Assembly: GCA_002363545.1 (NCBI GenBank)
Contig: DEWF01000001.1
Coordinates: forward strand, 106,880-170,879
Length of the DNA: 64,000 nt
From: Christensenella sp. UBA3217
GTDB taxonomy: Bacteria > Bacillota > Clostridia > Christensenellales > CAG-1252
Direction of reading: 5' to 3'
Of this stretch, positions 45,117 through 63,035 are shown in pieces; position 1 is the first letter of the stretch, and every line of letters starts with the position of its first letter. A program made the position numbers and the translations under genes. Below the pieces are notes generated by a model that had not been told where the DNA came from, made no database searches, and saw only the letters and a program-made list of their open reading frames with translations.

Positions 45117-45172
45117 GCCTGTTGTTCTTTGTAAAAGAACATTCAGGGACGTCATACGGATGGATAGTTTGG

Positions 45173-47004: not shown

Positions 47005-47017
47005 AAGGGAGGATATT

Positions 47018-48640
47018 ATGAAAAGAATCATCATCGCTATTTTGGTGCTTTCTCTTGCTTTCGGTTGTGTGATCGGCCTTGTTGGCTGCGGCGGCAGCGA
47101 GCAGGACGAGGGCGTCATTACGATCAGAAACGTTTACTTTGGAGAATGGAGCGCGGAGCAGGGCGACCCCTATACCGAGTACATTCAAACCAAGTTCGGC
47201 ATCAAGCTCAAAACCTCTAACTATAACTATGTCAACTGGGATACCCAAGTAAACGGTGAAGTGATGGGTGGACGTTTACCCGATGTGTTCCAGGCAAACG
47301 TCACGAGTTATAACTTTGATAACCTTTATAACTATTGGGCAGAAGGTGAGATCATCAAACCCCTTCCTTCCGATCTTTCTCCGTGGCCTTACCTGAAAAA
47401 GATGATCGAAAGCGTGAAGGATATCGATCTCTTGAAGTACAAGGGCAAACTGTACGGCATTCCCGTTATGAGGAATATCAGCACCACGGGACAAGTTTCC
47501 TTTGCTCCTTTTACTTATATCTATCGCCGTGACGTGGCAAAGCTTGCTGGCGTGTACCAGCCGAACGACGAATATACCTGGGAACAGTTTGAAGCTCTTC
47601 TTGAAGCCTTTACCTCTTATTTTAATACGGATAACGAGAGCATCGTGCTCGGAGACTCCGAATGGGGCTATCCTTCCGTTATCAATTTCTATAAGACCGC
47701 GCCGCACTGCTTTACCGAGAATGCGGACGGAAACATCGTGAACAACTATAATACCTCCGAGTATTTGGCAGGTTTGGCTAAGGCAAAAGAATTTGTAAAC
47801 AAAGGGTATTACAGTGACGTGCAAGCGGACGTTTCCGAAAAGCAGAACATGATCAAAGCCTATTATACCCAAAAGAAAGCTGGTATCCTTTACGAAAACC
47901 TTTCTTTTGAAAACTATCAAGAGATCAGAAATACCTTGATGAAGGACGGAAAGGTGTCCGAGGCGGATATCGACGATTATACCGCTATTATGAAGATCAA
48001 AGGTGAGGATGGGAAATACGCGCTGGAAGGACAAGAGCAATGGTTCTCCATGACTTTCCTGAACTACGATATCTCCACCGCAAAGATGAATAAGATCCTT
48101 GACATCATGGATTGGTTGCTTTCCGAAGAAGGCACGATGATGGCTCTTTACGGCATGGAGGATGTGGATTACGAGATCGTCACCGGCAACAACTTCGACA
48201 GCGAGTACAAAGGCACCAAGGTAAAGCTTCTTCCGACCAACCTTTGGGAAAAGGTGAAAGGCGAATACAAGGATGCTCTTAACGGCGCCAAATCTTTGAG
48301 AAAAATGCTCACGCTCGGAAATGATATTGCTGCCATTGATCCTGCCATTCAAAAGAACGCGAAAAAACAGCATTCTTATCTAATTTTGAGCGATTGGACT
48401 GCCGAGATGCAACAGGCTTACGAAGATGGTCTGTTAAGAGTTCTCACCGAGCCTGCGGACGTTAAATGGATGCAAACCAAGGAAAAATTGGCAAATGCCG
48501 GTAAATTGCTTGACGGAGCGAACACCGCGGTACTTTTGTACACGTTTGGCAAGAAGAATATGAGCTCTTACAATAGCGATATGACGAGCAGCACTTGGAA
48601 CAAAGTGTTGAATGAGATAAACAGGAATCGTAATAAATAA
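47018..48640 (+). CDS. Extracellular solute-binding lipoprotein (large LplA-type, family 1)
   Basis: 540 aa with the SD AAGGGAGG and the lipobox LVGC/GGSEQ. Its size and position after the two permeases fit an LplA-type binding protein. Confidence 0.8.
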   Translation: MKRIIIAILVLSLAFGCVIGLVGCGGSEQDEGVITIRNVYFGEWSAEQGDPYTEYIQTKFGIKLKTSNYNYVNWDTQVNGEVMGGRLPDVFQANVTSYNFDNLYNYWAEGEIIKPLPSDLSPWPYLKKMIESVKDIDLLKYKGKLYGIPVMRNISTTGQVSFAPFTYIYRRDVAKLAGVYQPNDEYTWEQFEALLEAFTSYFNTDNESIVLGDSEWGYPSVINFYKTAPHCFTENADGNIVNNYNTSEYLAGLAKAKEFVNKGYYSDVQADVSEKQNMIKAYYTQKKAGILYENLSFENYQEIRNTLMKDGKVSEADIDDYTAIMKIKGEDGKYALEGQEQWFSMTFLNYDISTAKMNKILDIMDWLLSEEGTMMALYGMEDVDYEIVTGNNFDSEYKGTKVKLLPTNLWEKVKGEYKDALNGAKSLRKMLTLGNDIAAIDPAIQKNAKKQHSYLILSDWTAEMQQAYEDGLLRVLTEPADVKWMQTKEKLANAGKLLDGANTAVLLYTFGKKNMSSYNSDMTSSTWNKVLNEINRNRNK

Positions 48641-48643
48641 AAT

Positions 48644-50155
48644 ATGAAAAAAGTATTGGCGATCTTGCTTTTAGTCCTTCTGATAGGCACCGTTACGGTG
48701 GGTTGTTCGGAAGAAAGCAAGTCGGACGGCGTAATCAAATTCGGGTCCGACAACATTGTTTCCGCTTCCTTTGACGGACTCGGTGTGGAATGGGGGACTT
48801 ATGAGGATACCAACAAGATGGTCAAAGGGTCTTGGGATAGGGTTCTTTCCGCGGTGGATAAACTCAACCCCAGCCTCGTGCGCTGCATGACGAACCTCGA
48901 TTGGTTCGTTACGGACTTTGACGATAAGGGCACGGATGATCCCGAAGACGATACTTGGGGGTATAACTTCAATAATAAACAAATGGTAAATGCGAGCGAC
49001 GTGTTGGATTACTGTCAGTCGCATGGTATCAAGGTGGCATTCGGTGTTTGGAACGTGATAGGAAACGTTGATCCTGATAAGGACATCTATAAGATGATCC
49101 CCAACGCTTCCGCCGATCCGCGTTGGGCAAAGATGGTGGCTGACCTTATGGAGTATCTGCTCGTAAGCAAGGGCTATTCCTGCATTTGTTGGTTTGTAAA
49201 CACCAACGAACCCAACGTGACGGGTCTTGTCGGAACTTCCAAAAACGCCTATAACACCGTTGATACTTGGATCACCGGGGTGAAAACCGTGCGCAGTGCC
49301 CTTGACAAGATCGGTCTGAATGATCTTGCCATCGTTGGCGGTGATACTACCACGTTGGAAGGTTCTCGTATCTATTTGAGAAAAGCCGCGAGCGAGATAT
49401 CGGGCATCTTGAATAACTACGGCGTGCACCTTTATGCGAATAACGGTGATATCGAGAGCGCAAGATACGAATCACGCGTGCGCGCGCTTTATAATGATAT
49501 CAAAAAGAAAGACGGCGAGCTGGGCAACAGCAAAAACATGTACATTTGGGAAGCAGGGCTTCTTTCGGGTAAAAACTCGTTAACCGACTGTAACGAATTC
49601 ATTATGAATTACAGCTACGGTCTTCGTATGGCGGATTACACAATTCAGAGCCTGAATGCAGGTATTAACGGCATCGTTTATTGGGACTTGGATGACGCCA
49701 TGCACTTTATGTACCATGAAACGGGTACGAATGCCAAAGAGTGGGGCATGTTCTCCACCCTTGCCACGGCGGAGCTTTCTAAACAAGAATACCGTCCCTG
49801 GTATCATTCTTCCGTGCTTTTGACCAATCTGCTTCGTCCCGGAAACGTTGTGTACGGTGCGAAAAATGCAGCTGAAGGTGTTCGTACTATTGCCACTGTG
49901 AACCAAGACAGAACGCAGGGCGGTATCGTTTTGGTAAACAACTCCAAAAAGAAAGTATCGCAGACCGTGGTGCTGGATGAAGCGATCAACGCAAGCGGAA
50001 AATTGTATATTTACGTTTATGATGAGGATTCTTTGAAAGTCGGGTCGGATGGCTTTGTGGTTCCCAATTACGTGGTGGACGGCAGCTTGAATAAAAAGAT
50101 GACCTTGGATGTGCCTGCTTATGCAATGGTGGTTGTATCCACAGAGAGGATTTAG
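48644..50155 (+). CDS. Lipoprotein, putative clan GH-A (beta/alpha)8 glycoside hydrolase with a C-terminal beta-sandwich; family unresolved
   Basis: 503 aa with the lipobox VTVGC/SEES. The candidate acid/base is in WFVNTNEPN (Glu189, nt 49208-49210) and the candidate nucleophile in MYIWEAG (Glu303). The 114-residue spacing is typical for clan A. Confidence 0.55.
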   Translation: MKKVLAILLLVLLIGTVTVGCSEESKSDGVIKFGSDNIVSASFDGLGVEWGTYEDTNKMVKGSWDRVLSAVDKLNPSLVRCMTNLDWFVTDFDDKGTDDPEDDTWGYNFNNKQMVNASDVLDYCQSHGIKVAFGVWNVIGNVDPDKDIYKMIPNASADPRWAKMVADLMEYLLVSKGYSCICWFVNTNEPNVTGLVGTSKNAYNTVDTWITGVKTVRSALDKIGLNDLAIVGGDTTTLEGSRIYLRKAASEISGILNNYGVHLYANNGDIESARYESRVRALYNDIKKKDGELGNSKNMYIWEAGLLSGKNSLTDCNEFIMNYSYGLRMADYTIQSLNAGINGIVYWDLDDAMHFMYHETGTNAKEWGMFSTLATAELSKQEYRPWYHSSVLLTNLLRPGNVVYGAKNAAEGVRTIATVNQDRTQGGIVLVNNSKKKVSQTVVLDEAINASGKLYIYVYDEDSLKVGSDGFVVPNYVVDGSLNKKMTLDVPAYAMVVVSTERI

Positions 50156-50158
50156 CTT

Positions 50159-52846
50159 ATGAAGAAAGTATTGTTATGCATGATCATCCTCTGTTCGATC
50201 GTACTAATTGCGGTAGGCTGCACTTCGGAGGAAACTCCCAAAACCTATGAATCCAACAGCTTTACTCTTACCCAACCAAGGGGGGATATCGGGGCTTTCC
50301 ATGCGGAAACTCCCGTGAATCATTTGATCACCACGACGATCCCCACTTTCTCTTGGACGGAAGCGGAAAACGCAGCGAGTTATACCTTGGAGATCGCGTC
50401 ATTGGAGAGTTCTTTGCTTACGGATGACGAGGCAACCAAGTACGCCGATACTTTATATATCTGTCAAAAGGGCATCACGTCCACCACTTACACCGTTCAG
50501 GCGGATCTGAAAAAGAATCAAACTTACTATTGGCGTGTGGTTGCCGTCAACAAAGACGACATACGCGAAAGCGATAGCCATATCCTTTCTTTCTATTACG
50601 AAGCAACGCTTTATGAAGAGATCCCGCTTTCGGTGGGATATGCCGATGAATGGAAGGTTCACGAGGTTGGCTCCAAAGCCACGGTTGCTCTTTCCAAAAA
50701 CGATTTCTTCGGAACAGGGGAGCAATCTTTGACTGTTTCTTTCGATAGGGAAGATACCCAGCGCGGTCCCGCCTATACCGAGTCCAACGGATGGGTGGTT
50801 GTCACTCGCAGTTTGGAACAAGAATTCTTTGGCGTGGACGCCTTCTATTTTAATTTCTATTATTCAGGCAATGACGCCGCGGCGTATTTCCGTTTGATAG
50901 ACGAGGATAACGAGTATTGGTATGCGCCCATCAAACTTGCCACAAACGCCAAGCAGACCATCATTATCAAATTCGAAGAATTTATCCTTCGTACCAAAGG
51001 TACGCCCGTGATGAATGAAAAATTTGATACGAATTATTTAAAGAGCGTGGAACTTGTGTTTGAGCACGTGGATGGTGACGGTATTGCGTATTTCAGCGAT
51101 TTGAGGGCGATCCGTTTTGATAATTATGCGGATATGTTCGTGGATCAGTTGAACTTTAACGAGCTTGCTTCCGAGTTAAAAACGGATAGCACGTACTTTA
51201 ACTTTACGGCAGATCCCGCAGAGAATGGGGATTCTCTTACCGTTTCTCTTACTACCAACAGCGGTATTCCGAGCGATCAACAGGGCTACGGCTTTGTGGT
51301 GATCCCCATTGGTAAAATGCTGTATATGGGAGATGCCTTCTATTTTGAACTTGATCTTTCCGGCATAAAAACCACCGATTATAACTTTATCATCCGTTTG
51401 GTGGAAGAGGATAACGACGTGTGGCAGTTCAAGATATCTGCCGCCAATGTGCCTGAGAACAAAAAGATGCTTATTCCTTTTGCGGCGTTTACCCTTGCGG
51501 AAGGCGGATTTAAGGGAGATGGCATCAAGCAGTTCTACTATATCAGACAGATCCTCTTTGGCGTGAACAGCTTGTATCAAGGCGGCTCCTTTGTTGTGAG
51601 CGACTTTATGCCCGTTATGCTCAAAGATTCTTTGGATGAGGAACTAATGTCCGCCGCGCTCAAAGACTCCTTGGGTGAGGAGTTGCACTCTACGGTCGTT
51701 GGAGAAGACGGCATGATCGATAACTTTGAGTCTTACGACTTGTTTTATCAAACCTATTATAGGTGGGCAACTTCCACGGCCAATAAGGATGAGGCGATCG
51801 AACTGTATTTTGACGCCGCTTTGGGTGGTAACAACACCGCTGCACGTTTTGGTTATAAGACAGACCTTCCCGAGGCTAATTATTCTACCAAACTTGCAAA
51901 AGAAGTGAGCGATTTTACCGCCATATCCATCTGTGCAAAAGATTCTTCTATCTTAAAAGCAGATGCTACCATGATCATTTATTTGGAAGATAAGCGCGGG
52001 AACTTGTATTCTTACACAATAGAAAAACTTGCGGACGAATGGAAAAAGTACACCGTTCCTTTCAGTGAGTTCTCCCTTACGGAAAACTCTTCGGGCTTTA
52101 CGAATATCACTTGCGATAGGATCACGGCGGTTTCCATTGCCTTCCAGTACTTCTATCAAAGAACGAGCATCTTTGATTTTTCCGATCCGGCGCAGTATAA
52201 TTCCGGCAACTTTGTATGCGTGGATAACATTTGCTTCACAGCCGATACCCAGCGCAAAACAGAGGACGCTTCTTTCAAGATCAAACCCACGGTCGGTAAT
52301 TCCAAGATCGCTGTGATTAACAACTTTGACGAGGATAGGGTGGAAACCTTAACTTGGAGCAGTGAAACCAACGCATCCTATGCGGTTCTTGACCTTTCCG
52401 ATGATACCGCTTCGGGAGAGGGAAAAAGCCTTAAAATGCCTTATAAATGCAATATGGAAACGCTTTATTCCGAGTATATTGCCGTGGATTCATCCGTTAA
52501 CGCAAAGGGGCTTACCCTTTTAATGAAAGGCGATTCGTATAGTTCCGATGCAACTTTGGTCTTTTACTTGAAGTACAACAACAAAGATTACAAGTATCAG
52601 GCTACCATCAGCGACATTTCTTCGGCGTGGACGACCTACTCGATAGGCTTTGATCAATTCGTGCAAACGCAGGGGGATACCAAGGCAATGACTTCCGATC
52701 TCGTGAAGTATATGTCCAAGGTGGTTTTGAACTTCAAAAACTATTCCGCTGCCGATTACTATATAAGCGAGATCCTCTTGGATGAGATCACGCTGGACGG
52801 AAACATAACGCTCGATACCAACACAAAGACCCCGTATGCGGGATAA
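50159..52846 (+). CDS. Surface lipoprotein with an Fn3-like N-terminal domain and four CBM-like (CIA30/CBM11-like) modules
   Basis: 895 aa with the lipobox LIAVGC/TSEE. The Fn3-like segment is IPTFSWTEAENAASYTLEIA...YYWRVVAVN. Four modules of about 170 aa end in ...LRAIRFDNY, ...SFVVSDF, ...FVCVDNICFT and ...ILLDEITLD. Confidence 0.7.
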   Translation: MKKVLLCMIILCSIVLIAVGCTSEETPKTYESNSFTLTQPRGDIGAFHAETPVNHLITTTIPTFSWTEAENAASYTLEIASLESSLLTDDEATKYADTLYICQKGITSTTYTVQADLKKNQTYYWRVVAVNKDDIRESDSHILSFYYEATLYEEIPLSVGYADEWKVHEVGSKATVALSKNDFFGTGEQSLTVSFDREDTQRGPAYTESNGWVVVTRSLEQEFFGVDAFYFNFYYSGNDAAAYFRLIDEDNEYWYAPIKLATNAKQTIIIKFEEFILRTKGTPVMNEKFDTNYLKSVELVFEHVDGDGIAYFSDLRAIRFDNYADMFVDQLNFNELASELKTDSTYFNFTADPAENGDSLTVSLTTNSGIPSDQQGYGFVVIPIGKMLYMGDAFYFELDLSGIKTTDYNFIIRLVEEDNDVWQFKISAANVPENKKMLIPFAAFTLAEGGFKGDGIKQFYYIRQILFGVNSLYQGGSFVVSDFMPVMLKDSLDEELMSAALKDSLGEELHSTVVGEDGMIDNFESYDLFYQTYYRWATSTANKDEAIELYFDAALGGNNTAARFGYKTDLPEANYSTKLAKEVSDFTAISICAKDSSILKADATMIIYLEDKRGNLYSYTIEKLADEWKKYTVPFSEFSLTENSSGFTNITCDRITAVSIAFQYFYQRTSIFDFSDPAQYNSGNFVCVDNICFTADTQRKTEDASFKIKPTVGNSKIAVINNFDEDRVETLTWSSETNASYAVLDLSDDTASGEGKSLKMPYKCNMETLYSEYIAVDSSVNAKGLTLLMKGDSYSSDATLVFYLKYNNKDYKYQATISDISSAWTTYSIGFDQFVQTQGDTKAMTSDLVKYMSKVVLNFKNYSAADYYISEILLDEITLDGNITLDTNTKTPYAG

Positions 52847-52869
52847 AAATAACAAAAAGGTGGACTGAA

Positions 52870-53883
52870 ATGAAACTCAACAAATATGATAAAAACCCTA
52901 TATTGACTGCAAAAGGTGACTCATGGGAGGGGCTTTGCGTACTGAATCCCGCCGTGATCTACGATGAGGACAGCAAGGAATTTAAGATGCTTTATCGCGC
53001 CGCGGGCAACGATCCCACGCACTATATTTACCTTGGCCTTGCCACTAGTAAAGATGGCTATCACTTTGACCGTGCGTCAGATAAGCCCGTGCTGGCACCC
53101 GATGTGAACGGTCCGGACGGTGGTTGCGTGGAAGATCCTCGCCTTGTGAAAATGGGAGAGTATTATTATTTGACCTACGCTTCCCGTACCTTTGCGCCCG
53201 GGCAGTATTGGAGAGAGGACTGCGGTTATTACGGCTTTCAACCCGAGGCGGGTCCCACCATGCTGATCACGAACGGCAGTGTGACGCATCTTGCCATCAG
53301 CAAAGATTTGCAGAATTGGAAAAAACTCGGCAGGATCACGGACAGCCGCTTGGATGATCGTGACGTGTATATCTTCCCCGAGAAGGTGGAAGGCAAGTTC
53401 GTGCGTTTATCTCGCCCGATGGAGTGGTGTGGGGAAGGGTTTGAAAATGAGAACCCCGCCATTTGGATCGCTTTTTCGGATGACTTGTTGGAATGGGGAA
53501 AGCCTACACTTTTGATGAAAGGGAATGAATGGTGGGAAGATGCCAAGATCGGTGGATCTACTCCTCCCGTAAAATGCAAGTACGGTTGGCTTTTGCTTTA
53601 TCACGGTGTGGCAAAGAAGGATGGCGGATATCGTGTTGGTGCGGTGATTTTGGATGAAAAGGATCCTACCAAGATCCTTGCTCGTACCAAAGATTTTATC
53701 ATGGAACCCGAGTTTTCTTTTGAAACGGACGGCTATTATAACGGCTGCGTGTTCCCGACGGGGATCGTGGTGAAAGATGATTTGATGTACGTCTATTACG
53801 GCGCCGCGGATAAGTTCGTTTGCGTAGCTACCGCACCGTTTGAGGCGTTTTGCGATCAAGTTTACAAAGAGGGGAAACTATGA
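52870..53883 (+). CDS. GH130 family enzyme (second, divergent paralog; PH1107/DUF377-like subgroup)
   Basis: 337 aa with the motifs NKYDKNPILTAKGDSWEGLCVLNPAVIY, GCVEDPRLVKMGEYYYLTYA and DDRDVYIFPEKVEGKFVRLSRP. Confidence 0.85.
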   Translation: MKLNKYDKNPILTAKGDSWEGLCVLNPAVIYDEDSKEFKMLYRAAGNDPTHYIYLGLATSKDGYHFDRASDKPVLAPDVNGPDGGCVEDPRLVKMGEYYYLTYASRTFAPGQYWREDCGYYGFQPEAGPTMLITNGSVTHLAISKDLQNWKKLGRITDSRLDDRDVYIFPEKVEGKFVRLSRPMEWCGEGFENENPAIWIAFSDDLLEWGKPTLLMKGNEWWEDAKIGGSTPPVKCKYGWLLLYHGVAKKDGGYRVGAVILDEKDPTKILARTKDFIMEPEFSFETDGYYNGCVFPTGIVVKDDLMYVYYGAADKFVCVATAPFEAFCDQVYKEGKL

Positions 53884-55223
53884 AAAAAATAAGCATAGCA
53901 CTCATCTCGATCATTTGCATGATTTGTACGATAGCACTCTCCGCTTGTTCTTCCGAGAAAGCGAAAAAGTATTCTTATTCTCCGTTGAATGCAAAAGTGC
54001 GTTATCTTACGAACATTGCAGGTGAGACCATCTCCCTTTCTTCGGGACGTGAGGTGATTTCGGAAAATACCGTCTTTATGACTGAGGAAGCCATGGAAGG
54101 GGATATTCTTACCGAGCCTACCGAGCATCCCACAAGAGTGGGATATGACTTTTGCGGATGGGCGCTGGATAAAGAGGGGGAACAACTGTTCGATTTTAGC
54201 ACCCCCATTACCGGCAGTTTGAATTTGTACGCAAAGTGGGAGCGCACGCAAGAGAGTGAAACGGTGCTGGATTATACCGAGCCCAGGTTGCAGTTTACCG
54301 AAGTGATAGACGAATCCTCCGAATTCTCTTTAACGGGCGTGTGCAATCAGCCCATCAAGGATGACGCAGTCGGGCTCACAACGGCAGGCATCAATCGTCT
54401 GACGGCAAAGGCGCAAAACGTTAAAGAGTATTTGAATTATACCCGCGCTTCTGCCACTGCAATTCAATCCGCAACGTATGAAAACGGTGTTGTCAGCGTG
54501 ACCTATACGACGGGAGGATCCAACACAACCATCCAAGTGACGGTAAACGATATCACGAGCACTTTGGCAATAACGGATGATCCCGCTACGCCCAAAGAAA
54601 GCATAGACGAAAGTACCTTTGAAAGAAAGGCGCTCAGATATGAAGCAACGGATATTGCTTCCTATAACGTGATCTTGGGCGGCTCATCCTCTATGGAGAA
54701 TTGGAGCAATTCCACCGAGTATATGAATCCCGTCACCACCAAAAACGTTGGTATCGGCGGTTCTGCGTCCTTCCATTGGCTCAACTCCCTTGCGGATCGC
54801 TTGATCATTCCTTACAATCCCAGGACCGTGGTGCTTTACGTGGGCATTAACGATATCATCAACTTCAAGAAAAACGGAAAGACCACAGGTGAGAATTTGA
54901 TCAAACTGTTTGAGTATTTACACGAGCGTTTGCCCGAAGCACACGTTCACTTCATTTTGATCAATCACGTGCCGGGCTATTATAAAACTTATAAGAGCTA
55001 TATTGATACCGCAAACAATATGGTGCTCGAATATGCCCAAACGCATGAATACTTAAAGACGATAGATGCGGGTACCGTTCTTGAAAAGAAAAACGGGGAG
55101 TATTCCGAAGCATACTTCTTGACCGATAAATTGCATATGTCGCAGGCAGGATACGTGCTTTGGGGCGCCGAAGTGAAAAAAGCGGTGATCGCGGATGATA
55201 AGGAGCGTTATGACAATGATTGA
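53880..55223 (+). CDS. Lipoprotein SGNH/GDSL esterase with an N-terminal Listeria-Bacteroides (Flg_new-type) repeat
   Basis: The track ORF starts at 53850. I prefer ATG 53880 (MKKISIALISIICMICTIALSAC/SSEK), which overlaps the GH130 stop as ATGA. The Flg_new-like segment is GYDFCGWALDKEGEQLFDFSTPITGSLNLYAKW. The SGNH blocks are ILGGSSSMENW, GIGGS and DKLHMSQAGY. Confidence 0.75.
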   Translation: MKKISIALISIICMICTIALSACSSEKAKKYSYSPLNAKVRYLTNIAGETISLSSGREVISENTVFMTEEAMEGDILTEPTEHPTRVGYDFCGWALDKEGEQLFDFSTPITGSLNLYAKWERTQESETVLDYTEPRLQFTEVIDESSEFSLTGVCNQPIKDDAVGLTTAGINRLTAKAQNVKEYLNYTRASATAIQSATYENGVVSVTYTTGGSNTTIQVTVNDITSTLAITDDPATPKESIDESTFERKALRYEATDIASYNVILGGSSSMENWSNSTEYMNPVTTKNVGIGGSASFHWLNSLADRLIIPYNPRTVVLYVGINDIINFKKNGKTTGENLIKLFEYLHERLPEAHVHFILINHVPGYYKTYKSYIDTANNMVLEYAQTHEYLKTIDAGTVLEKKNGEYSEAYFLTDKLHMSQAGYVLWGAEVKKAVIADDKERYDND

Positions 55224-55818
55224 ACACAAGATTGATATGTATCGTTATGAACCCGAATTGCAAGCGATCATTGCAAAACAGGGGAAAGAATGCAACGTGC
55301 TCTTTTACGGAAGCAGCACTTTCGGCATTTGGAAAAGCATAGAGGAAGAGTTTAAGGATTACAAGGCGATCAATGCCGGCTTTGGAGGCTCTACTTCGGA
55401 CGAAGCACTTTTCCACTATGAGAGAGTGGCAAAGCCCTTTGCTCCCAAGGTGGTTTTGTGGTATTACGGGGATAACGAGCCCGTTTGTTCCTATACGGTA
55501 GAAGAAACCAAGGAGCTCTTTCTTGCCACTTGGGAAAAGTTCGTAAAGGATTTTCCCGGCGTGAAGATCGTTACCATTGCTACAAAAACCAGTTTTGCGC
55601 GCGATGAATACAAGGATTTTGTGCGTGAGCTCAACGCTTGGCAAAAAGAGCAGGCGGCAAAGTTGCCTTATCTTACCTATATCGAAACGGCAGATATCTG
55701 TAAGGATGAGAAAGGGGAGTATATCTTCTCTCATTACTTGGATGATAAACTGCATTTCGGCCCCGAAGGCTACAAGATCCTCGGAGCAAGAGTGAAGAGA
55801 GTGCTTGACGAGATATGA
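55210..55818 (+). CDS. Cytoplasmic SGNH/GDSL esterase
   Basis: About 202 aa with no signal peptide. The SD AAGGAG (55200-55205) precedes ATG 55210; the track start is 55195. The SGNH blocks are LFYGSSTFGIW, GFGGSTS, YYGDNE and DDKLHFGPEGY. Confidence 0.7.
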   Translation: MTMIEHKIDMYRYEPELQAIIAKQGKECNVLFYGSSTFGIWKSIEEEFKDYKAINAGFGGSTSDEALFHYERVAKPFAPKVVLWYYGDNEPVCSYTVEETKELFLATWEKFVKDFPGVKIVTIATKTSFARDEYKDFVRELNAWQKEQAAKLPYLTYIETADICKDEKGEYIFSHYLDDKLHFGPEGYKILGARVKRVLDEI

Positions 55819-56297
55819 TGCTCGTAAAGGATGAAGACAGAGTAGCGGCAGAGAGAAAGAAAAAGCAGTTGCTTATTCTTTATATCGTGATCGCCTGCGT
55901 GTACGTGGCAGGCGCCTTACTGTTGCTTTTTCTGTCATCCGACAGCTATATCCCCTTCATGGTGGGTGATATTGTGCTCTCAATTGCCTTTGCATGGTAT
56001 TCGATCTTCTTCTTTACGGTACAGTTTGATTATCAGGTCAAATGGTGCCGTTTGATGAATAAAGTGACGGGCGCGCTTGTGGAAAGCGTATACGGCGTGT
56101 TCGTGAAGGAAGAGGCGCGTAAAACCATCGAAGGTGTGGAAATGCGCATATTGATCTTTCAGGTGAGAGATAGTGAGCGTGAGCTCCATCTTTTACGTGA
56201 GGATGCTACCTTTGAAAAAGGAAAAAAATATCTTCTCGTTACGCAAGCAAGCGTGATCGTGGAGATAGGAGAGCAAGATGAAAAAAAGGTTTCGTGA
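55815..56297 (+). CDS. Hypothetical membrane protein (2 TM segments plus a C-terminal soluble domain)
   Basis: 160 aa with an ATGATG overlap with the esterase stop. The TM segments are LLILYIVIACVYVAGALLLLFL and VGDIVLSIAFAWYSIFFFTV. No family was recognised. Confidence 0.5.
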   Translation: MMLVKDEDRVAAERKKKQLLILYIVIACVYVAGALLLLFLSSDSYIPFMVGDIVLSIAFAWYSIFFFTVQFDYQVKWCRLMNKVTGALVESVYGVFVKEEARKTIEGVEMRILIFQVRDSERELHLLREDATFEKGKKYLLVTQASVIVEIGEQDEKKVS

Positions 56298-56826
56298 TTC
56301 TTTGCCCTCCGAATGGCTGAAATACTTGGTGGTCACCATCCTATGTGTGGTGCTGTGGATGTGGTTTTTCGGAATGTATCATTCTCCGAAAGACACCGAG
56401 AAAATAGAAGTTTTTTTTGCAGGACACGTGAAGAGCGGCAACGCTTTTGAAAGCCTTGCGGAAAAGCAGTTTGATTACTTAAAATCCGTGAGCATTGCCT
56501 CGGCTGATCCTGCGAGAAAGAATGCTTTTCAGCAAAAGTATGAAACGGTGGGATTCACGATGTCCGACGTGGTGATCGTGCCGGAAAGCGTGGCGAATGC
56601 AACGCAATGCGAAACGGCGTTTGCCGAATTGACGGATATGGGAGAAGCCTATATCCAAAACGAGATCTCTTACGGTGTTTATATTCCGGAAGAGAAAAAA
56701 ACTTGGCTTGCGCAATACTTTGATTTTACAGAGGAGCGATACGTTGTATTTGCGGTGGCTTCCTCGGTAAATTCGGGTGGCAAAACAAACCATTCTTTTG
56801 ATTTTATTGAATGGATTGTGAGGTAA
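56278..56826 (+). CDS. Hypothetical membrane-anchored protein (N-terminal TM segment plus an extracytoplasmic domain of about 140 aa)
   Basis: 182 aa, overlapping the upstream ORF by 20 nt. The TM segment is LKYLVVTILCVVLWMWFFGMY. No family was recognised. Confidence 0.5.
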   Translation: MKKRFRDSLPSEWLKYLVVTILCVVLWMWFFGMYHSPKDTEKIEVFFAGHVKSGNAFESLAEKQFDYLKSVSIASADPARKNAFQQKYETVGFTMSDVVIVPESVANATQCETAFAELTDMGEAYIQNEISYGVYIPEEKKTWLAQYFDFTEERYVVFAVASSVNSGGKTNHSFDFIEWIVR

Positions 56827-56827
56827 T

Positions 56828-57682
56828 ATGTTTAGGTACAAAGGGTTGAAATTGAAGGAGGGGGACGCTGCCCTTCCCAAAACGAGAAAGGAATTATTTA
56901 AGACCATCGTCCGAGATGATTTCTACTTGCTTGCGGAGATCAGCGTGATACTTTTCCTCTTTTCCATTCCTTTGGCAGCGGGGTTCATCTTGGAAGTGTT
57001 AATGATCACACATTTGCCGGACCTACAAGGGTTGTTCTGGGTGTGTTTCTACTCCGCCTTGATAGAGATCCCGCTCTTCGGAGTGCGCTATATCGGTCGT
57101 CATGCGGCATTCGGTGTGATGAAGAAAAGGGTGCAAAACGAAGGGGGCTATATCAAAGAACTGTTTTTCCAAAACCTGAAAAAAGGGTTTGTTAAAGGGT
57201 TCTTGGCAGGGTGCCTAGTGGGGTTCATTGCTTTCCTATGGCAGGTCGGATCCATCTTTGTTTTAACGAATGACAGCACTTGGATCAAAGGGCTTGGCTT
57301 GGGTGCAACCACTTTGATCTTTACGATGTTTTACGTGGCGGTGGAGTACTTTCTCTCGGTGGATAATTTTTACGAGTTAAAGTTCTCGGGTGCATTGAAA
57401 AACGGGTTATCCTTTACGATCATGCACTTTCCCATGTCGCTCGTGTACTTCGTTGCCTGCGTGGGCGTACCTTTTGCGCTCACCGTGATTTCTCCTTGGG
57501 CCATCTTCGCGTTTGCCGCGGTAATGGCTTTTTGGGGAGATGGTTTTACGGTGCTGGTAGCAACGCTGTATAGTCACACGTTGTTTGATAGGTATATAAA
57601 CTCGGTGTATTATCCCGATTATATAAATAAGGGTCTTGCTCCGCGAGAGGGAGAGGCCGAAAAGGAGAATGACAATGGCTGA
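56828..57682 (+). CDS. Polytopic membrane protein, possibly YesL/DUF624-like
   Basis: 284 aa with about 6 TM segments. It starts 2 nt after the upstream stop and overlaps the ATPase gene by 8 nt. The DUF624 assignment rests on topology and context only. Confidence 0.45.
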   Translation: MFRYKGLKLKEGDAALPKTRKELFKTIVRDDFYLLAEISVILFLFSIPLAAGFILEVLMITHLPDLQGLFWVCFYSALIEIPLFGVRYIGRHAAFGVMKKRVQNEGGYIKELFFQNLKKGFVKGFLAGCLVGFIAFLWQVGSIFVLTNDSTWIKGLGLGATTLIFTMFYVAVEYFLSVDNFYELKFSGALKNGLSFTIMHFPMSLVYFVACVGVPFALTVISPWAIFAFAAVMAFWGDGFTVLVATLYSHTLFDRYINSVYYPDYINKGLAPREGEAEKENDNG

Positions 57683-60600
57683 TTTACTACTTGAGAATAT
57701 TTACAAGGTGTACGAGGGCGGCGTTCGCGCGGTTTCCGACTTTAATCTCAAGATCGAAGACAAGGAGTTCGTGGTTTTCGTCGGACCATCCGGTTGCGGT
57801 AAGAGTACCACTCTTCGTATGATCGCCGGTTTGGAAGAGATCACCTCGGGCAGTTTGTATATCGGTGGGTCCAAGATGAACAACGTGGAACCCAAGGATA
57901 GAAATATCGCAATGGTTTTCCAGAACTATGCATTGTATCCGCACATGACCGTTTATAAGAACATGGGATTCGGCTTGAAGCTTCGTAAAGTGAATTCCAA
58001 AGAGATCGATAAAAGGGTGAAGGCCGCGGCGTCTGTTTTAGGTATTACCGATCTTCTTTCCAGAAAGCCCAAGGCGCTTTCCGGTGGTCAAAGACAGCGC
58101 GTGGCGCTCGGCCGTGCGATCGTTCGTGAACCCAACGTGTTCCTTTTGGACGAGCCTCTTTCCAACTTGGACGCTAAACTGCGCGTGCAGATGAGAGCAG
58201 AGATCACTAAGTTGCATAAAAAACTAGCCACCACCTTTATTTATGTGACACACGATCAAACCGAAGCAATGACGATGGGTGATAGGATCGTGGTTATGAA
58301 GGATGGGTTCATTCAGCAAGTGGACTCTCCCGCAACCCTTTACGAACAACCGAGAAACGTGTTTGTGGCAACCTTCCTCGGCTCTCCTCAAATGAATATC
58401 TTTGACGCCAATCTTTTCAAAAACGGCGAGCTTGGTGTAACCTTTGGCGAGGATCATACCGTTACCTTTTCTCAAAAGAAAGCAAACCAACTTGCCGATG
58501 AAAGATATATCGGTCAAAAGGTGCTTTTCGGTATTCGTCCCGAAAATATCAAACTTGGCGGCAAAGAAGGCATTCGCGGCAGAGTGGACGTGGTGGAACA
58601 CCTTGGCAGTGAGACCATCATTTATGCTAACGTAAGCGGGGTGGAATCACCGATTATCGTAAAAGTGCCCACTAATTACGATATCGTGGAAGGGTTGGAG
58701 ATCAGCATGGTGTTTGATATGGAAAAATCCCATCTTTTCGATGCGGAAACCAAACAGTCCATCATGGGCGTACCTGACGTGAACCGCGTGCCGTGCTCTA
58801 TTGAGAATAACCAGCTTGTCATTAACAAAAGGCGTTATCTTTTGCCTGAATTATTAAAGAAGAAGTTCTTTGACTTCTCACGTGAAAGCCTTGCCGAGAT
58901 CCGTATTCCCGCCACGAAAGTGTCTTTGGAAGAAGTGCCGGAAGGGATCCATTTTAAGGCAAAGGTGGACTTTACGATCCCCGGAAACGACTCTGTCACT
59001 TTCTACGTTAAATCCGAAGTGAAAGAAGGATTTTTTGTGTTCCGTATCAATAACTCTTACTTTAATCAAACAGAAGATGGGGTTGATACCAGAAAAGTGC
59101 CGCAAGAAGGGGAAGAGATCGACTTGTACGTGCCTTTCTCCGAAATCTCCTTTACCGACAAGGACGGCCTGCGCGTGAATTCTCGCGAGATCATTTCTTC
59201 CAATACCGCTCCTTGCCGTGTCACTACGAAAAACGGCATTACTCGCATCCGTTTGAAGGGGAACACACTTACTTATAATGATCTTCAGGTGGAAGATGGC
59301 GATTATACGATCAAGCTGAAATCGGATAAAATCGGCTTTGTGTATGACAAAAAGTTTGCCAAAGCAAACAAAATTCCTCTTTCGGGCAAAGTGCCTAATT
59401 CCGTGGTCGCAAAGGCTTATGACGAAGATCGTTTGGGCGACAAAAATGCGGTTTTCTGTGCTGTGAAAGGGTTTGATAATTACGTGACAGCCGTGCTTCC
59501 CGCCACCTTCTCGGTGTACAAAATGCCAAAGTTCAAGTTTGTGATCGGAAGGGATAGTTTCACTTTGGAAAAGCGAGCAAATCAAGTGAATTCCGGAAGG
59601 AACGTAAACGAATTGTATTCTCTTTGGAGAGAAAAAGTGACCGATGAAACGTTGGCTGATGAATTAGACAGCATTGCAAACAATGAGGAAAAGATCTCCG
59701 ATGCGTTCTATCGTGATTTGGAATTCGGAACCGGTGGTTTGCGCGGTGTGCTTGGTGCCGGAACGAATAGAATGAATATTCACACGGTGGGAAAAGCAAC
59801 GCAAGGCCTTGCCGATTATGTGATAGCCAATTATCCGGAAGGGGAAAGAAGCGTTGCGATCAGCTATGATTCACGCATCAATTCCGACGTATTTGCCAAG
59901 AGGGCGGCAGCCATCTTTGCCGCAAACGGTATTAAAGTGTATCTTTATAAAACTTTGATGCCTACGCCTTGTTTGTCTTATGCGGTGCGTTCATTGAAAA
60001 CAAGCGCCGGTGTTATGGTGACGGCTTCTCACAATCCGGCAAAGTATAATGGTTACAAAGTGTACGGGAATGACGGTTGCCAAATTACCGAACAAGCGGC
60101 AAATGAGATCCTTTCGCTTATCGAGAGTACGGATATTTTTAACGGCGTAAAGATTAAGGACTTTGATAAGGCTTTGGCACAAGGGGAAATCGAATATATT
60201 TCCGACAACGTTTTGACTTCCTTTATCGAACGCGTAAAGAAGGAATCGGTGCTTGGGGATGAAAAAGCCGACCGTAGTGCCAACATCGTTTATACTCCTT
60301 TGAACGGAACGGGACTTGTGCCTGTCACTCGCATTTTGAAGGAAACGGGCTTTTCCAACGTGACGGTTGTAAAAGAACAAGAACTCCCGGACGGAAACTT
60401 CCCTACCTGTCCCTATCCCAATCCCGAGATCAAGGAAGCGCTTGCCCTTGGATTGGAATACGCTAAAAATACTTCCGCTGATATTTTGATCGCAACCGAT
60501 CCCGATTGCGATCGTGTGGGTATTGCGGTTAAAAACAAGGATGGTGATTTCTCCCTTTTGACCGGAAATGAAGTTGGATTCTTGCTTCTTGATTTTATTG

Positions 60601-61214
60601 CAAGCATGCGTATCAAGCACGGAACGATGCCCGCTGATCCCGTGTTTGTCAAAACCATCGTCACGAGTGATCTTGCCGAGAAGATCGCGGATCATTACGG
60701 TATTCGTACCATCAATGTGCTTACCGGCTTTAAGTATATCGGCGAGCAGATCGGTCTTTTGGAAAAGAAGGGGAAGGAAGATTGCTACCTGTTGGGCTTT
60801 GAAGAAAGCTACGGTTATCTGTCCGGCTCTTACGTGCGTGATAAGGACGCGGTAGACGGTGTGTTCATGATTGCCGAGATGTTTGCCTATTACAGAGCGC
60901 AAGGTATCTCCTTGCTTGATAAGCTGGATGAGATCTATGCAACTTACGGGCATTTTGTTTCCACCTTGGAGAGCTTTGCCTTTGAAGGTCAAGAAGGCTT
61001 TGTTAAGATGAGCAAGATCATGGATGAGTATCGTGAGACTATGGTGGTTGAAGGGAAAAAGGTCGTGGAGAAGAAAGACTATTCTATCGGCATTGACGGA
61101 CTTCCCAAATCAAACGTGATCAAATTTACCTTTGAAGACGGAAGTACGATGGTGGTGCGTCCTTCGGGTACCGAGCCTAAGCTGAAAATCTATCGTTGTA
61201 CCCTTCAAAAATAA
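57675..61214 (+). CDS. Fusion protein: MsmX/MalK-type ABC ATPase + ~270 unassigned residues + phosphohexomutase (PGM/PMM)
   Basis: The frame holds 1179 codons from ATG 57675 (SD AAAGGAG 57661-57667; the track start is 57636). ATPase motifs: GPSGCGKST, LSGGQRQRVALGRA, FLLDEPLS and VTHDQ, with the regulatory domain ending EKSHLFDAETKQSI. Mutase motifs: FGTGGLRG, TASHNPAKYNGYK, DPDCDRVG, GFEESYGY and RPSGTEP. Confidence 0.85.
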   Translation: MADLLLENIYKVYEGGVRAVSDFNLKIEDKEFVVFVGPSGCGKSTTLRMIAGLEEITSGSLYIGGSKMNNVEPKDRNIAMVFQNYALYPHMTVYKNMGFGLKLRKVNSKEIDKRVKAAASVLGITDLLSRKPKALSGGQRQRVALGRAIVREPNVFLLDEPLSNLDAKLRVQMRAEITKLHKKLATTFIYVTHDQTEAMTMGDRIVVMKDGFIQQVDSPATLYEQPRNVFVATFLGSPQMNIFDANLFKNGELGVTFGEDHTVTFSQKKANQLADERYIGQKVLFGIRPENIKLGGKEGIRGRVDVVEHLGSETIIYANVSGVESPIIVKVPTNYDIVEGLEISMVFDMEKSHLFDAETKQSIMGVPDVNRVPCSIENNQLVINKRRYLLPELLKKKFFDFSRESLAEIRIPATKVSLEEVPEGIHFKAKVDFTIPGNDSVTFYVKSEVKEGFFVFRINNSYFNQTEDGVDTRKVPQEGEEIDLYVPFSEISFTDKDGLRVNSREIISSNTAPCRVTTKNGITRIRLKGNTLTYNDLQVEDGDYTIKLKSDKIGFVYDKKFAKANKIPLSGKVPNSVVAKAYDEDRLGDKNAVFCAVKGFDNYVTAVLPATFSVYKMPKFKFVIGRDSFTLEKRANQVNSGRNVNELYSLWREKVTDETLADELDSIANNEEKISDAFYRDLEFGTGGLRGVLGAGTNRMNIHTVGKATQGLADYVIANYPEGERSVAISYDSRINSDVFAKRAAAIFAANGIKVYLYKTLMPTPCLSYAVRSLKTSAGVMVTASHNPAKYNGYKVYGNDGCQITEQAANEILSLIESTDIFNGVKIKDFDKALAQGEIEYISDNVLTSFIERVKKESVLGDEKADRSANIVYTPLNGTGLVPVTRILKETGFSNVTVVKEQELPDGNFPTCPYPNPEIKEALALGLEYAKNTSADILIATDPDCDRVGIAVKNKDGDFSLLTGNEVGFLLLDFIASMRIKHGTMPADPVFVKTIVTSDLAEKIADHYGIRTINVLTGFKYIGEQIGLLEKKGKEDCYLLGFEESYGYLSGSYVRDKDAVDGVFMIAEMFAYYRAQGISLLDKLDEIYATYGHFVSTLESFAFEGQEGFVKMSKIMDEYRETMVVEGKKVVEKKDYSIGIDGLPKSNVIKFTFEDGSTMVVRPSGTEPKLKIYRCTLQK

Positions 61215-61225
61215 AAAGCATTCAT

Positions 61226-61260
61226 AAAAAGGGCTTGCTTCGGCGAGCCTTTTTTGTTTT
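61226..61260 (+). terminator. Rho-independent terminator closing the glycan locus
   Basis: The stem ggcttgc (61232-61238) / gcgagcc (61243-61249) has loop ttcg, an A-run before it and a T6 run after it. Confidence 0.7.
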
Positions 61261-61368: not shown

Positions 61369-62115
61369 ATGTTAGAACTTAAAAACGTTTGTTTTTCCGT
61401 ACCGGGAGAGGATGGAAAGAAAAAAGAGATCATTCGGGATATCAGTTTGACTCTTGAAGATGGAAAACTTGCCGTCATTACCGGTCCGAACGGTGGGGGC
61501 AAGTCCACCCTTGCTCGTTTGATCATGGGAATTGAAAAGCCCACTTCCGGCAAGATCTTTTATAATGGGGAAGATATTACCGATCTTTCCGTTACCGATC
61601 GTGCAAAGAAAGGTGTTTCTTTTGCATTCCAACAGCCCGTAAAATTCAAAGGATTAAAGGTGTTGGATCTTCTTCGTATCGCAAGCGGAAAACGTCTTGC
61701 GGTGGGGGACGCTTGTCGTTATCTTTCGGCAGTGGGTCTTTGCGCAAGGGATTATATCGATCGTGAACTCAATGCAAGCTTGTCAGGCGGAGAGCTTAAA
61801 AGGATCGAGATCGCACAGATCCTTTCTCGTGCAACCAAACTTTCCATTTTTGATGAGCCGGAGGCCGGTATCGATCTTTGGAGTTTCAATAATCTTATTA
61901 AAGTGTTTGAGGATATGCGCAGAGATATTGAGGACGGATCCATTATCATCATCTCCCACCAAGAGCGTATATTAAACGTGGCGGATGAGATCATTGTGAT
62001 AAGTGGCGGTAAGGTGGAAAGAAAGGGCTCGAAAGAGGAAATTTTGCCTTCCTTGTTGGGGTCTGCTTCCGTTTTGAATTTCTGTACCGGTGCGTCCGGA
62101 AAGGAGGACGTATGA
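61369..62115 (+). CDS. sufC: SufC-like Fe-S cluster assembly ATPase
   Basis: 248 aa with Walker A GPNGGGKST, signature LSGGELKRIEIAQ and Walker B SIFDEPEAGID. It is followed by a SufB/D-domain gene. Confidence 0.8.
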   Translation: MLELKNVCFSVPGEDGKKKEIIRDISLTLEDGKLAVITGPNGGGKSTLARLIMGIEKPTSGKIFYNGEDITDLSVTDRAKKGVSFAFQQPVKFKGLKVLDLLRIASGKRLAVGDACRYLSAVGLCARDYIDRELNASLSGGELKRIEIAQILSRATKLSIFDEPEAGIDLWSFNNLIKVFEDMRRDIEDGSIIIISHQERILNVADEIIVISGGKVERKGSKEEILPSLLGSASVLNFCTGASGKEDV

Positions 62116-63035
62116 AGTTTGATGAGATCCAACTGAGGCTTCTTGAAGAAGTGGCTGACCTCCACGGGGTGCCCGAAGGCGCATATAATATTCGCTCGGA
62201 TTCCGAGGCGGTGGGCAGACGCTCCACCGAACATATCGTTATTACTTCCAAAAAGGACGTGAGCGGTATTGATATTGAGATCATGCCCGGCACCAAGAAT
62301 GAAAGCGTGCATATCCCCGTGGTAATGACCAAGAGCGGTTTGAAAGAAACCGTTTATAACGATTTTTACGTGGGGGAAGGCGCGGATGTTTTGATCGTTG
62401 CCGGATGTGGTATTGATAACTGCGGAACGGGAGATTCCGAGCATGACGGCGTGCATCGTTTTTTTTTGAAGAAGGGCGCCAAAGTGCGTTATGTGGAAAA
62501 GCATTACGGCTCCGGAACAGGAAAAGGTAAGCGTATTTTGAACCCCGTCACCGAAGCATATTTGGAAGAAGGTGCGGAAATGACCATGGAAATGGTACAG
62601 ATCAAAGGCGTGGATGATACCGAGCGTACCACCGTAGCTAAACTTGCCGCCGGTGCAAAACTCGTGGTGCGTGAAAGATTGATGACGCACGATGATCAAA
62701 GGGCTTTAAGCCGCTATGACGTGATCTTGGATGGTGAAGGCGCAAGCGCGGACGTTGTCTCCCGCTCTGTGGCAAGGGGCACTTCTTTCCAAAAATTTGA
62801 TGCAAAGATCACGGGTAACGCCCCCTCTTACGGACACACCGAATGTGACTCCATCATTATGGACCAAGGTAAGATCCTTGCCGTTCCCGGCTTGCAGGCA
62901 AACCATATAGACGCATCGCTTTTGCATGAGGCGGCAATCGGCAAGATCGCGGGAGATCAGTTAATAAAGCTCATGACCCTGGGGCTTACCGAACAAGAGG
63001 CGGAAGAACAGATCATTAACGGTTTCCTGCGTTAA
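62112..63035 (+). CDS. SufB/SufD-domain protein (short form)
   Basis: 307 aa with an ATGA overlap with sufC. The beta-helix-like segment is FYVGEGADVLIVAGCGIDN...HDGVHRFFLKKGAKVRYVEKHYG, and the C-terminus is HEAAIGKIAGDQLIKLMTLGLTEQEAEEQIINGFL. Confidence 0.75.
   Translation: MKFDEIQLRLLEEVADLHGVPEGAYNIRSDSEAVGRRSTEHIVITSKKDVSGIDIEIMPGTKNESVHIPVVMTKSGLKETVYNDFYVGEGADVLIVAGCGIDNCGTGDSEHDGVHRFFLKKGAKVRYVEKHYGSGTGKGKRILNPVTEAYLEEGAEMTMEMVQIKGVDDTERTTVAKLAAGAKLVVRERLMTHDDQRALSRYDVILDGEGASADVVSRSVARGTSFQKFDAKITGNAPSYGHTECDSIIMDQGKILAVPGLQANHIDASLLHEAAIGKIAGDQLIKLMTLGLTEQEAEEQIINGFLR

Follow-up and report, generated by a model that had tools for sequence, protein, structure and literature searches.

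In the 64,000-nucleotide (nt) window analysed here (contig DEWF01000001.1 of Christensenella sp. UBA3217, a rumen or gut member of the Clostridia, assembly GCA_002363545.1, positions 106,880 to 170,879 of the forward strand), a single open reading frame (ORF) within a mannoside-utilisation operon joins the ATPase subunit of an ATP-binding cassette (ABC) sugar importer to a phosphohexomutase. The frame is best explained, with a probability of about 0.75, as a real bifunctional fusion that arose by read-through of operon neighbours and in which the functions of the two halves are additive. The fusion is real but rare, having arisen twice from a widely conserved gene pair, and it came about when neighbouring genes were joined by read-through or deletion, not as a designed architecture. 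Its parts are all of known kinds, and their combination arises by a mundane mechanism.

The fused ORF and its flanking signals are organised as follows, with amino acid (aa) positions referring to the fused protein:

57662-57667, + strand: Shine-Dalgarno sequence AAGGAG, 7 nt before the ATG at 57675
57675-58379, + strand: ABC nucleotide-binding domain, aa 1-235 (Pfam, NCBIfam, motif positions)
58380-58766, + strand: regulatory module 1, aa 236-364, canonical MalK-type OB/TOBE (OB_MalK 2e-12, TOBE_2 2e-8)
58767-59165, + strand: regulatory module 2, aa 365-497, degenerate copy of module 1 (hhalign, AlphaFold2, Foldseek)
59166-59573, + strand: regulatory module 3, aa 498-633, a further degenerate copy (hhalign, AlphaFold2, Foldseek)
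59574-59597, + strand: fusion junction, R634-G641 (junction comparison with 12 relatives)
59595-61211, + strand: PgcA-like alpha-D-phosphohexomutase, aa 641-1179 (Pfam, motifs, model)
61232-61255, + strand: terminator-like hairpin GGCTTGC-TTCG-GCGAGCC followed by a run of six T, 18 nt after the stop codon (read by eye)

According to the ORF list and the translation, the frame (57675-61214, + strand) runs unbroken for 1179 codons, with no stop codon from 57675 to 61211, and is closed by TAA at 61212-61214, as the preliminary description of this DNA had stated. The ATG at 57675 is taken to be the true start, because homologues begin with MADLLLEN and a Shine-Dalgarno sequence lies 7 nt upstream; the start overlaps the 3' end of the preceding DUF624-like gene, whose stop lies at 57682. 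A promoter and terminator consensus scan gave no signal beyond chance within the ORF and did not flag the hairpin behind the stop codon.

Both halves carry the hallmarks of their families. In the ATPase half, Walker A occupies aa 37-45, the Q-loop aa 80-86, the ABC signature aa 135-142, Walker B aa 156-163, and the H-loop aa 191-195, and these motifs are invariant in a 30-sequence alignment. The complete importer ATPase with five motifs and a MalK-like domain described at first is confirmed by motif positions, Pfam, and NCBIfam. In the mutase half, the four signature loops stand where they had been placed, namely TASHNP at aa 783-788 (its Ser785 codon being TCT at 60027-60029), DPDCDR at aa 942-947, GFEESYGY at aa 1041-1048, and RPSGTEP at aa 1162-1168. 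The domain scan matched every expected family, and all four PGM_PMM matches exceed their cutoffs:

aa 21-162: ABC_tran (Pfam, 3e-33)
aa 236-292: OB_MalK (Pfam, 2e-12)
aa 286-355: TOBE_2 (Pfam, 2e-8)
aa 683-819: PGM_PMM_I (Pfam, 9e-43)
aa 850-953: PGM_PMM_II (Pfam, 8e-24)
aa 965-1090: PGM_PMM_III (Pfam, 2e-14)
aa 1134-1173: PGM_PMM_IV (Pfam, 6e-6, spanning only profile positions 21-49 of 68)

Residues 1-363 match the NCBIfam model NF008653 of the UgpC subfamily with 474 bits against a cutoff of 432, while the MalK equivalog NF008233 is not reached (427 bits against a cutoff of 568); by these scores, the ATPase half is classified as a member of the UgpC subfamily (MsmX/MalK/UgpC type) and not as MalK itself.

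The fused frame is genuine and no assembly artefact, because three kinds of independent sequence agree on it. Gene calling yields an identical protein of 1179 aa on 13 contigs taken from NCBI, Logan, and ENA, which represent independent assemblies made with different assemblers from different samples and include the NCBI UBA metagenome-assembled genome (MAG) GCA_002371055.1 and the Logan assembly of SRR5322940. A second allele in the same 90% cluster, likewise 1179 aa long, is identical at 1177 of 1179 residues. Finally, a fused orthologue from another metagenome (locus L001), 1209 aa in length and 71% identical, shares both the architecture and the flanking genes. When the two fused lineages and one split lineage were compared, the nonsynonymous divergence (dN) was 0.05-0.5 against saturated synonymous divergence (dS) for the nucleotide-binding domain, the regulatory modules, and the mutase, which indicates that all modules are under purifying selection.

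The origin of the fusion can be followed at the junction. That the two activities are normally separate polypeptides, as initially remarked, applies to the close relatives of this very protein: a mutase gene lies 8-107 nt 3' of the long ATPase gene in 25 of 46 species-level genomes, is fused to it in none of the 46, and is kept as a second gene in all 25. These adjacent mutases are 75-84% identical to that of the window in the Clostridia clade and about 50% identical in the Bacilli clade. At the syntenic locus of L002/L003 (74% identity), a 668-aa ATPase ends in TGA, and 1 nt further on a mutase gene of its own, encoding 539 aa, begins with ATG. The junction in relatives reads ...SFELIKK-TAA, then 15-17 nt with a Shine-Dalgarno sequence, then ATG-AGA-GAC/AAC-GTA-AAA, whereas the window has ...SFTLEKR-GCA-AATCAAGTGAATTCC-GGA-AGG-AAC-GTA-AAC..., which would yield a protein containing ...FTLEKRANQVNSGRNVNELY... 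across the junction. In this alignment, GCA at 59577-59579 (Ala635) occupies the position of the relatives' TAA, positions 59580-59594 were once the 15-nt intergenic spacer and now encode the linker NQVNS, their Shine-Dalgarno sequence having decayed, and GGA at 59595-59597 (Gly641) corresponds to the former mutase ATG. With both the Shine-Dalgarno sequence and the ATG decayed, synthesis of the mutase would depend almost entirely on translation of the whole fused frame. In another relative (L044), TAA, 15 nt, and ATG all lie in one frame, which places this locus one substitution short of fusion.

The second fused protein was built differently. In L001, one Pro codon stands in place of the stop codon, the spacer, and the ATG, and the spacer of its closest relatives measures 75-100 nt and contains a hairpin. 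In a neighbour-joining tree of mutases based on Kimura distances with 300 bootstraps, L001 clusters with the split loci L011/L025/L014 in 300/300 replicates and the window clusters with the split L002 in 237/300, while the window and L001 appear as sisters in 0/300. Because the junctions are constructed differently and the two fused proteins are never sisters, the most parsimonious reading is that two independent fusions occurred by different mutational routes, namely stop-codon loss in the window lineage and deletion in the other. Rarity is also apparent in large collections: ABC_tran and PGM_PMM occurred together in two clusters only among the 120 best-scoring matches listed from a search of 5.8 billion clustered proteins, and a HMMER scan of 1.84 billion representatives, in which non-representative members, including the fused proteins, are hidden, returned no other ABC-mutase fusion among the top 150. 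A literature search found no description of an ATPase-mutase fusion, in line with the first impression that the architecture had not been described.

As a separate observation, the spacer between ATPase and mutase in L011 (1476-1563), L025, and L014 carries, within its 75-100 nt, a GC-rich hairpin GCGGCGGGG...CCCGCCGC, a possible attenuator or terminator separating the two genes. The segment bearing this hairpin is the one deleted in the fused L001 lineage.

The middle region of about 270 residues, which the preliminary description had left unassigned, consists of two extra degenerate MalK-type OB/TOBE regulatory modules. Residues 365-644 match no Pfam family at E <= 0.1, the TOBE and OB_MalK models included. 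Profile comparison by hhalign nevertheless aligns module 1 with module 2 (97.4%, E 1e-11, 117 columns), module 2 with module 3 (93%, E 3e-7, with aa 498-640 used for the latter), and, partially, module 1 with module 3 (82.6%). The AlphaFold2 model of the extension is all-beta, with a predicted local distance difference test (pLDDT) score of 88.5 and a predicted template modelling (pTM) score of 0.77, and in Foldseek it retrieves ModE 1b9m, ModG 1h9m, MsmX 6yir, and MalK 1g29 with E-values from 6e-5 to 7e-4. Each match covers about 145 columns, that is, half of the query, and both halves match the TOBE-type domains of ModE and ModG as well as the regulatory domains of MsmX, MalK, and SugC. From profile comparison and structure prediction, the window ATPase is therefore assigned three tandem MalK-type regulatory modules, the last of which closes with AYDEDxLG...FSVYKMPKF, a motif found throughout the family. 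The models cover the extension and the mutase as separate pieces.

The trait of extra modules runs through a family of over 100 protein clusters, 650-880 aa in length, in which the number of modules is variable. The long ATPase occurs in 46 species-level GTDB genomes, all of them rumen or gut MAGs, labelled as Christensenella/Clostridia, Oscillospiraceae, and Bacilli/Erysipelotrichaceae, and a literature search for long forms of MsmX or for a long-ATPase family found no description. Across the family, the number of extra modules ranges from 2 to about 5, as in P0100 (879 aa), P0047/P0054/P0063 (830-850 aa), and P0006-like members (747 aa), and some members contain acidic Glu/Pro/Val-rich or coiled-coil-like inserts between modules. 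A typical Bacilli-type pair of long ATPase and mutase is also present in L032 (CAVKNZ010000066.1), which is binned as "Bacteroidaceae bacterium"; this label is probably a binning error.

The mutase half had been called complete with a normal N-terminus, a description that holds for its four domains and four loops but not for its two ends, as the initiator Met of the ancestral mutase is now Gly641 and domain 4 ends in a strand, without the usual C-terminal helix. The protein terminates 11 residues past RPSGTEP and is about 24 residues shorter than Lachnospiraceae homologues of 65-68% identity. Since this short C-terminus is common to about 60 sequence clusters of 538-540 aa, fused or not, it is regarded as typical of the clade and not as damage; the idea that it was a consequence of fusion was rejected, given that split relatives have the same end. 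The AlphaFold2 model of the mutase (pTM 0.82) has the normal four-domain shape, with domain 4 folded at pLDDT 75-91, and Foldseek aligns it with the Salmonella phosphoglucomutase (PGM) 3olp at a template modelling score of 0.71 and E 5e-27; a PDB sequence search with the mutase returned only distant archaeal and Thermus entries for PGM and phosphomannomutase (PMM). All four catalytic loops are invariant across 27 homologues, which speaks for an enzyme and against a pure sensor.

PgcA-like mutases are found fused to other partners elsewhere, including GHMP kinase, NTP transferase, UDPGP (UDP-glucose pyrophosphorylase), the cupin of phosphomannose isomerase (PMI), an ECF S-component, and a VTT membrane domain (entries P0298, P0316, P0370, P0385, P0296, and P0353), and some of these fusions could be gene-calling read-throughs.

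The genes surrounding the fusion are arranged as follows, glycoside hydrolase family 130 being abbreviated as GH130:

36091-44088, + strand: ORF of 2665 aa directly 5' of the GH130 operon and on the same strand, without a Pfam match even at E <= 1
44139-57682, + strand: rest of the operon, all 5' of the fusion
44139-45116, + strand: GH130, upstream copy, closest to TM1225 (1e-136) and to the beta-1,4-mannooligosaccharide phosphorylase RaMP2 (1e-114)
45122-47004, + strand: two BPD_transp_1 permeases (Pfam)
between the permeases and the 895-aa protein, + strand: a 540-aa and then a 503-aa protein
after the 503-aa protein, + strand: an 895-aa CIA30/CBM11-like protein
52870-53883, + strand: GH130, cluster-core copy, closest to the beta-1,2-mannoside phosphorylases 9fj8 (2e-52) and 7fip (2e-47)
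53850-55818, + strand: two GDSL esterases
55815-57682, + strand: three small proteins of 160, 182, and 284 aa, read as membrane proteins by eye, the 284-aa one weakly DUF624-like
61369-63035, + strand: SufC-like (ABC_tran) and SufD-like (SUFBD_core) genes, according to the Pfam labels of the identical L004/L005 genes

The genes for the small proteins are tightly packed, with overlaps between the 160- and 182-aa genes and between the 284-aa and ATPase genes and a gap of 1 nt at the remaining junction. The Suf-like genes are syntenic downstream in all close relatives and mark where the mannoside operon ends on its 3' side. Among the operon ORFs scanned, Pfam identified no GH26, GH113, GH36, GH1, epimerase, or LacI regulator, and the 2665-, 895-, 540-, and 503-aa ORFs were left without an assignable family. 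The 2665-aa ORF may encode a surface protein of the mannoside system. Neither Pfam nor BLAST matches the 540-aa protein; the genes at the corresponding position in L052-L054, which are substrate-binding-protein-like and lie at the locus ends, carry SBP_bac_8, and from its position the 540-aa protein is a putative LplA-like binding protein. Both GH130 enzymes of the window are closest to characterised mannoside phosphorylases, but of different subgroups, and the natural substrate may be something other than plain beta-1,4-mannan.

The core of the cluster, comprising a binding protein, a protein of about 510 aa, a protein of about 890 aa, GH130, esterase, the three small proteins, and the long ATPase, is kept in Bacilli MAGs. 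In one of them (L052), the mutase and a type-I PMI directly follow the long ATPase; in L053, the mutase and an adjoining PMI lie about 6-6.6 kb downstream of it, and in L054 the mutase is absent within 10 kb. Wherever a related locus (L001-L054) includes enough DNA upstream, homologues of the esterase and of at least the 284-aa protein occur in the same order, and in most loci all three small proteins do. The extension of the ATPase thus tracks the three small proteins more strictly than it tracks the mutase, the respective frequencies being every testable locus and about 55%.

This context gives the two halves their probable roles. Enzymes of GH130 release alpha-mannose-1-phosphate (Man1P), which PMM and PMI convert to fructose-6-phosphate (PMC4264767), and RiPgm of a Roseburia mannan locus is a PMM/PGM active on both Man1P and glucose-1-phosphate (Glc1P) (PMC6385246). 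The earlier proposal that a phosphomannomutase would be the next step after GH130 is borne out by the nearest relatives of both GH130 enzymes, by the PMI found beside the mutase in Bacilli MAGs, and by the routes described in these two studies. By operon context and analogy with RiPgm, the mutase half is best read as the enzyme of the operon that converts Man1P to mannose-6-phosphate (Man6P), and the ATPase half is best read as the motor of the importer.

The sequence of events is best reconstructed as follows. The ancestral layout was ...IKK-TAA, about 15 nt with a Shine-Dalgarno sequence, and ATG-RDVK..., with the two genes already in the same frame in some relatives. The stop codon between these adjacent, co-transcribed genes of a conserved mannoside-utilisation operon turned into a sense codon, the spacer came to be read as a linker (ANQVNS when Ala635 is counted in), and the redundant Shine-Dalgarno sequence and ATG decayed, the latter to GGA. 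In the present protein, the N-terminal half would dimerise and power a binding-protein-dependent importer composed of the two permeases and the putative LplA-like binding protein; the GH130 phosphorylases would cleave the imported beta-mannosides to Man1P, and the C-terminal mutase would convert Man1P to Man6P. Fusion would enforce 1:1 synthesis and would place two mutase domains beneath each transporter. The sequences themselves establish that the frame is real, what its domains are, how the junction originated, that the gene pair is conserved, that fusion happened twice independently, and that selection is purifying; that both halves are active, that Man1P is the substrate, and that tethering is of any advantage are inferences from this arrangement. 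The cell appears at the least to tolerate the fusion and may gain modestly from it.

Several known systems share features with this arrangement. The multitask sugar-importer ATPases MsmX (B. subtilis, 6yir), MalK (E. coli, 1q12), UgpC, and SugC (mycobacterial, 8hpr) likewise combine a nucleotide-binding domain bearing all motifs with an OB/TOBE domain, the UgpC cutoff is passed, and the fold of the extension matches theirs; however, the window protein has three regulatory modules instead of one, is encoded inside a catabolic operon directly after three small proteins, and is covalently joined to an enzyme. The C-terminal regulatory domains of importer ATPases, such as those of MalK, ModC (TOBE), and MetN (C2), mediate trans-inhibition. 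ModC (ModBC 3d31, among the fold matches) resembles the window protein in having TOBE-type beta-barrel modules appended to the nucleotide-binding domain, whereas, unlike in ModC and MetN, the modules here are tripled and are followed by a catalytic enzyme and not by a small sensor domain.

At the level of the locus, the MULL of Roseburia intestinalis also unites GH130, SGNH-type acetyl esterases, an ABC importer, and a PMM/PGM, and its locus-encoded mutase RiPgm converts Man1P to Man6P, the same role as proposed here (PMC6385246). It differs in that its mutase is a free protein and its described importer genes number three, while the core GH130 of the window is closest to beta-1,2-mannoside phosphorylases and no GH26, GH113, GH36, or epimerase was identified in the scanned operon ORFs. 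The Teth514_1788/1789 cluster of Thermoanaerobacter similarly places GH130 phosphorylases of beta-1,2-oligomannan and mannobiose, with Man1P as product, beside an ABC importer, but sends Man1P to GDP-mannose through a guanylyltransferase, with separate ATPases and a PMM encoded elsewhere (PMC4264767). The fusions of phosphohexomutases with GHMP kinase, NTP transferase, UDPGP, and PMI cupin are comparable Rosetta-stone cases in which a mutase is joined to a neighbour, but their partners are soluble enzymes of adjacent steps, whereas the partner in the window is the motor subunit of a membrane transporter.

Some observations weigh against an additive bifunctional fusion. All sequences derive from metagenome assemblies; nearly all relatives use two separate proteins, so that fusion is not required and may be neutral; no PMI gene lies within the 64-kb window; the preference of the mutase for Man1P or Glc1P cannot be read from the sequence, and the characterised Roseburia enzyme uses both; and the missing terminal helix of domain 4 may bear on activity, even though this feature is clade-wide. 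The metagenomic origin of the data, together with the short mutase C-terminus and the partial match to Pfam domain IV, might suggest that an error removed the stop codon or that the mutase half is a decaying pseudogene, but this explanation is effectively refuted by the concordance of the 13 contigs and the allele, by a junction that departs from split relatives by several substitutions and not one base, by the occurrence of the short end in about 60 clusters, by invariant catalytic loops with dN far below dS, and by a domain 4 that is modelled as folded. A further point concerns possible internal starts, since an in-frame TTG at 59613-59615 lies 12 nt after GGAAGG and an in-frame GTG lies at 59586-59588. 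Such starts, as well as the derivation of the linker RANQVNSG from formerly non-coding sequence, would fit a fused frame that nevertheless gives separate proteins, by internal re-initiation or by proteolytic cleavage in the ex-intergenic linker. This outcome is highly improbable, as the ancestral ATG and its good Shine-Dalgarno sequence are lost, a 12-nt spacing is long, and L001 has no linker beyond its single Pro codon and no Shine-Dalgarno sequence before the Met six codons downstream.

It is also conceivable, although unlikely, that the fusion is adaptive, with ATPase and mutase forming a physical complex in which the triple-module platform would hold the mutase at the transporter and thereby channel Man1P or throttle ATP hydrolysis according to sugar-phosphate occupancy, by analogy with trans-inhibition through the C-terminal domains of MalK, ModC, and MetN. 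Conservation of the gene pair across Clostridia and Bacilli, a Rosetta-stone signal from two independent fusions, an extension made of regulatory-type TOBE modules, fixation of the fusion in all 13 contigs of the species, and the disappearance of the separate mutase start site are all in keeping with this idea. Yet the extension goes with the three small proteins in every testable locus and with an adjacent mutase in only about 55%, the mutase is 6.6 kb away in L053 and absent within 10 kb in L054, PgcA-like mutases fuse readily with many neighbours, so that adjacency alone can explain the fusions, and most relatives work unfused. A broader version, in which the long ATPase is the hub of a transporter-enzyme metabolon in a widespread rumen mannoside system, with the mutase attached covalently where the genes are fused and docking without a covalent bond in most other species, and with occupancy by Man1P, Man6P, or hexose bisphosphate feeding back on ATP hydrolysis, is a doubtful speculation; it would mean that ABC importers have a new kind of trans-inhibition or substrate channelling mediated by an enzyme. 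The additive bifunctional fusion remains the preferred reading.

Provided that cells make the 130-kDa protein and that both of its halves work, it would represent a natural ABC importer motor joined covalently to a catabolic enzyme of the imported sugar, of which no described case was found, and it would offer a ready-made construct for asking whether transport is physically coupled to downstream metabolism. Should the fusion be neutral, it would still provide a clean, datable example of operon neighbours merging by stop-codon loss. Two independent fusions of a deeply conserved pair predict an interaction between ATPase and mutase in the species in which they are split. A literature search on GH130 systems of Christensenellales found nothing relevant, and the locus draws attention to an uncharacterised, conserved cluster of rumen Firmicutes, in which genes for GH130, esterase, three small putative membrane proteins, and an ATPase with a triple regulatory domain are often followed by PMM and PMI, and which probably handles beta-mannosides without the ATP cost of phosphorylation.

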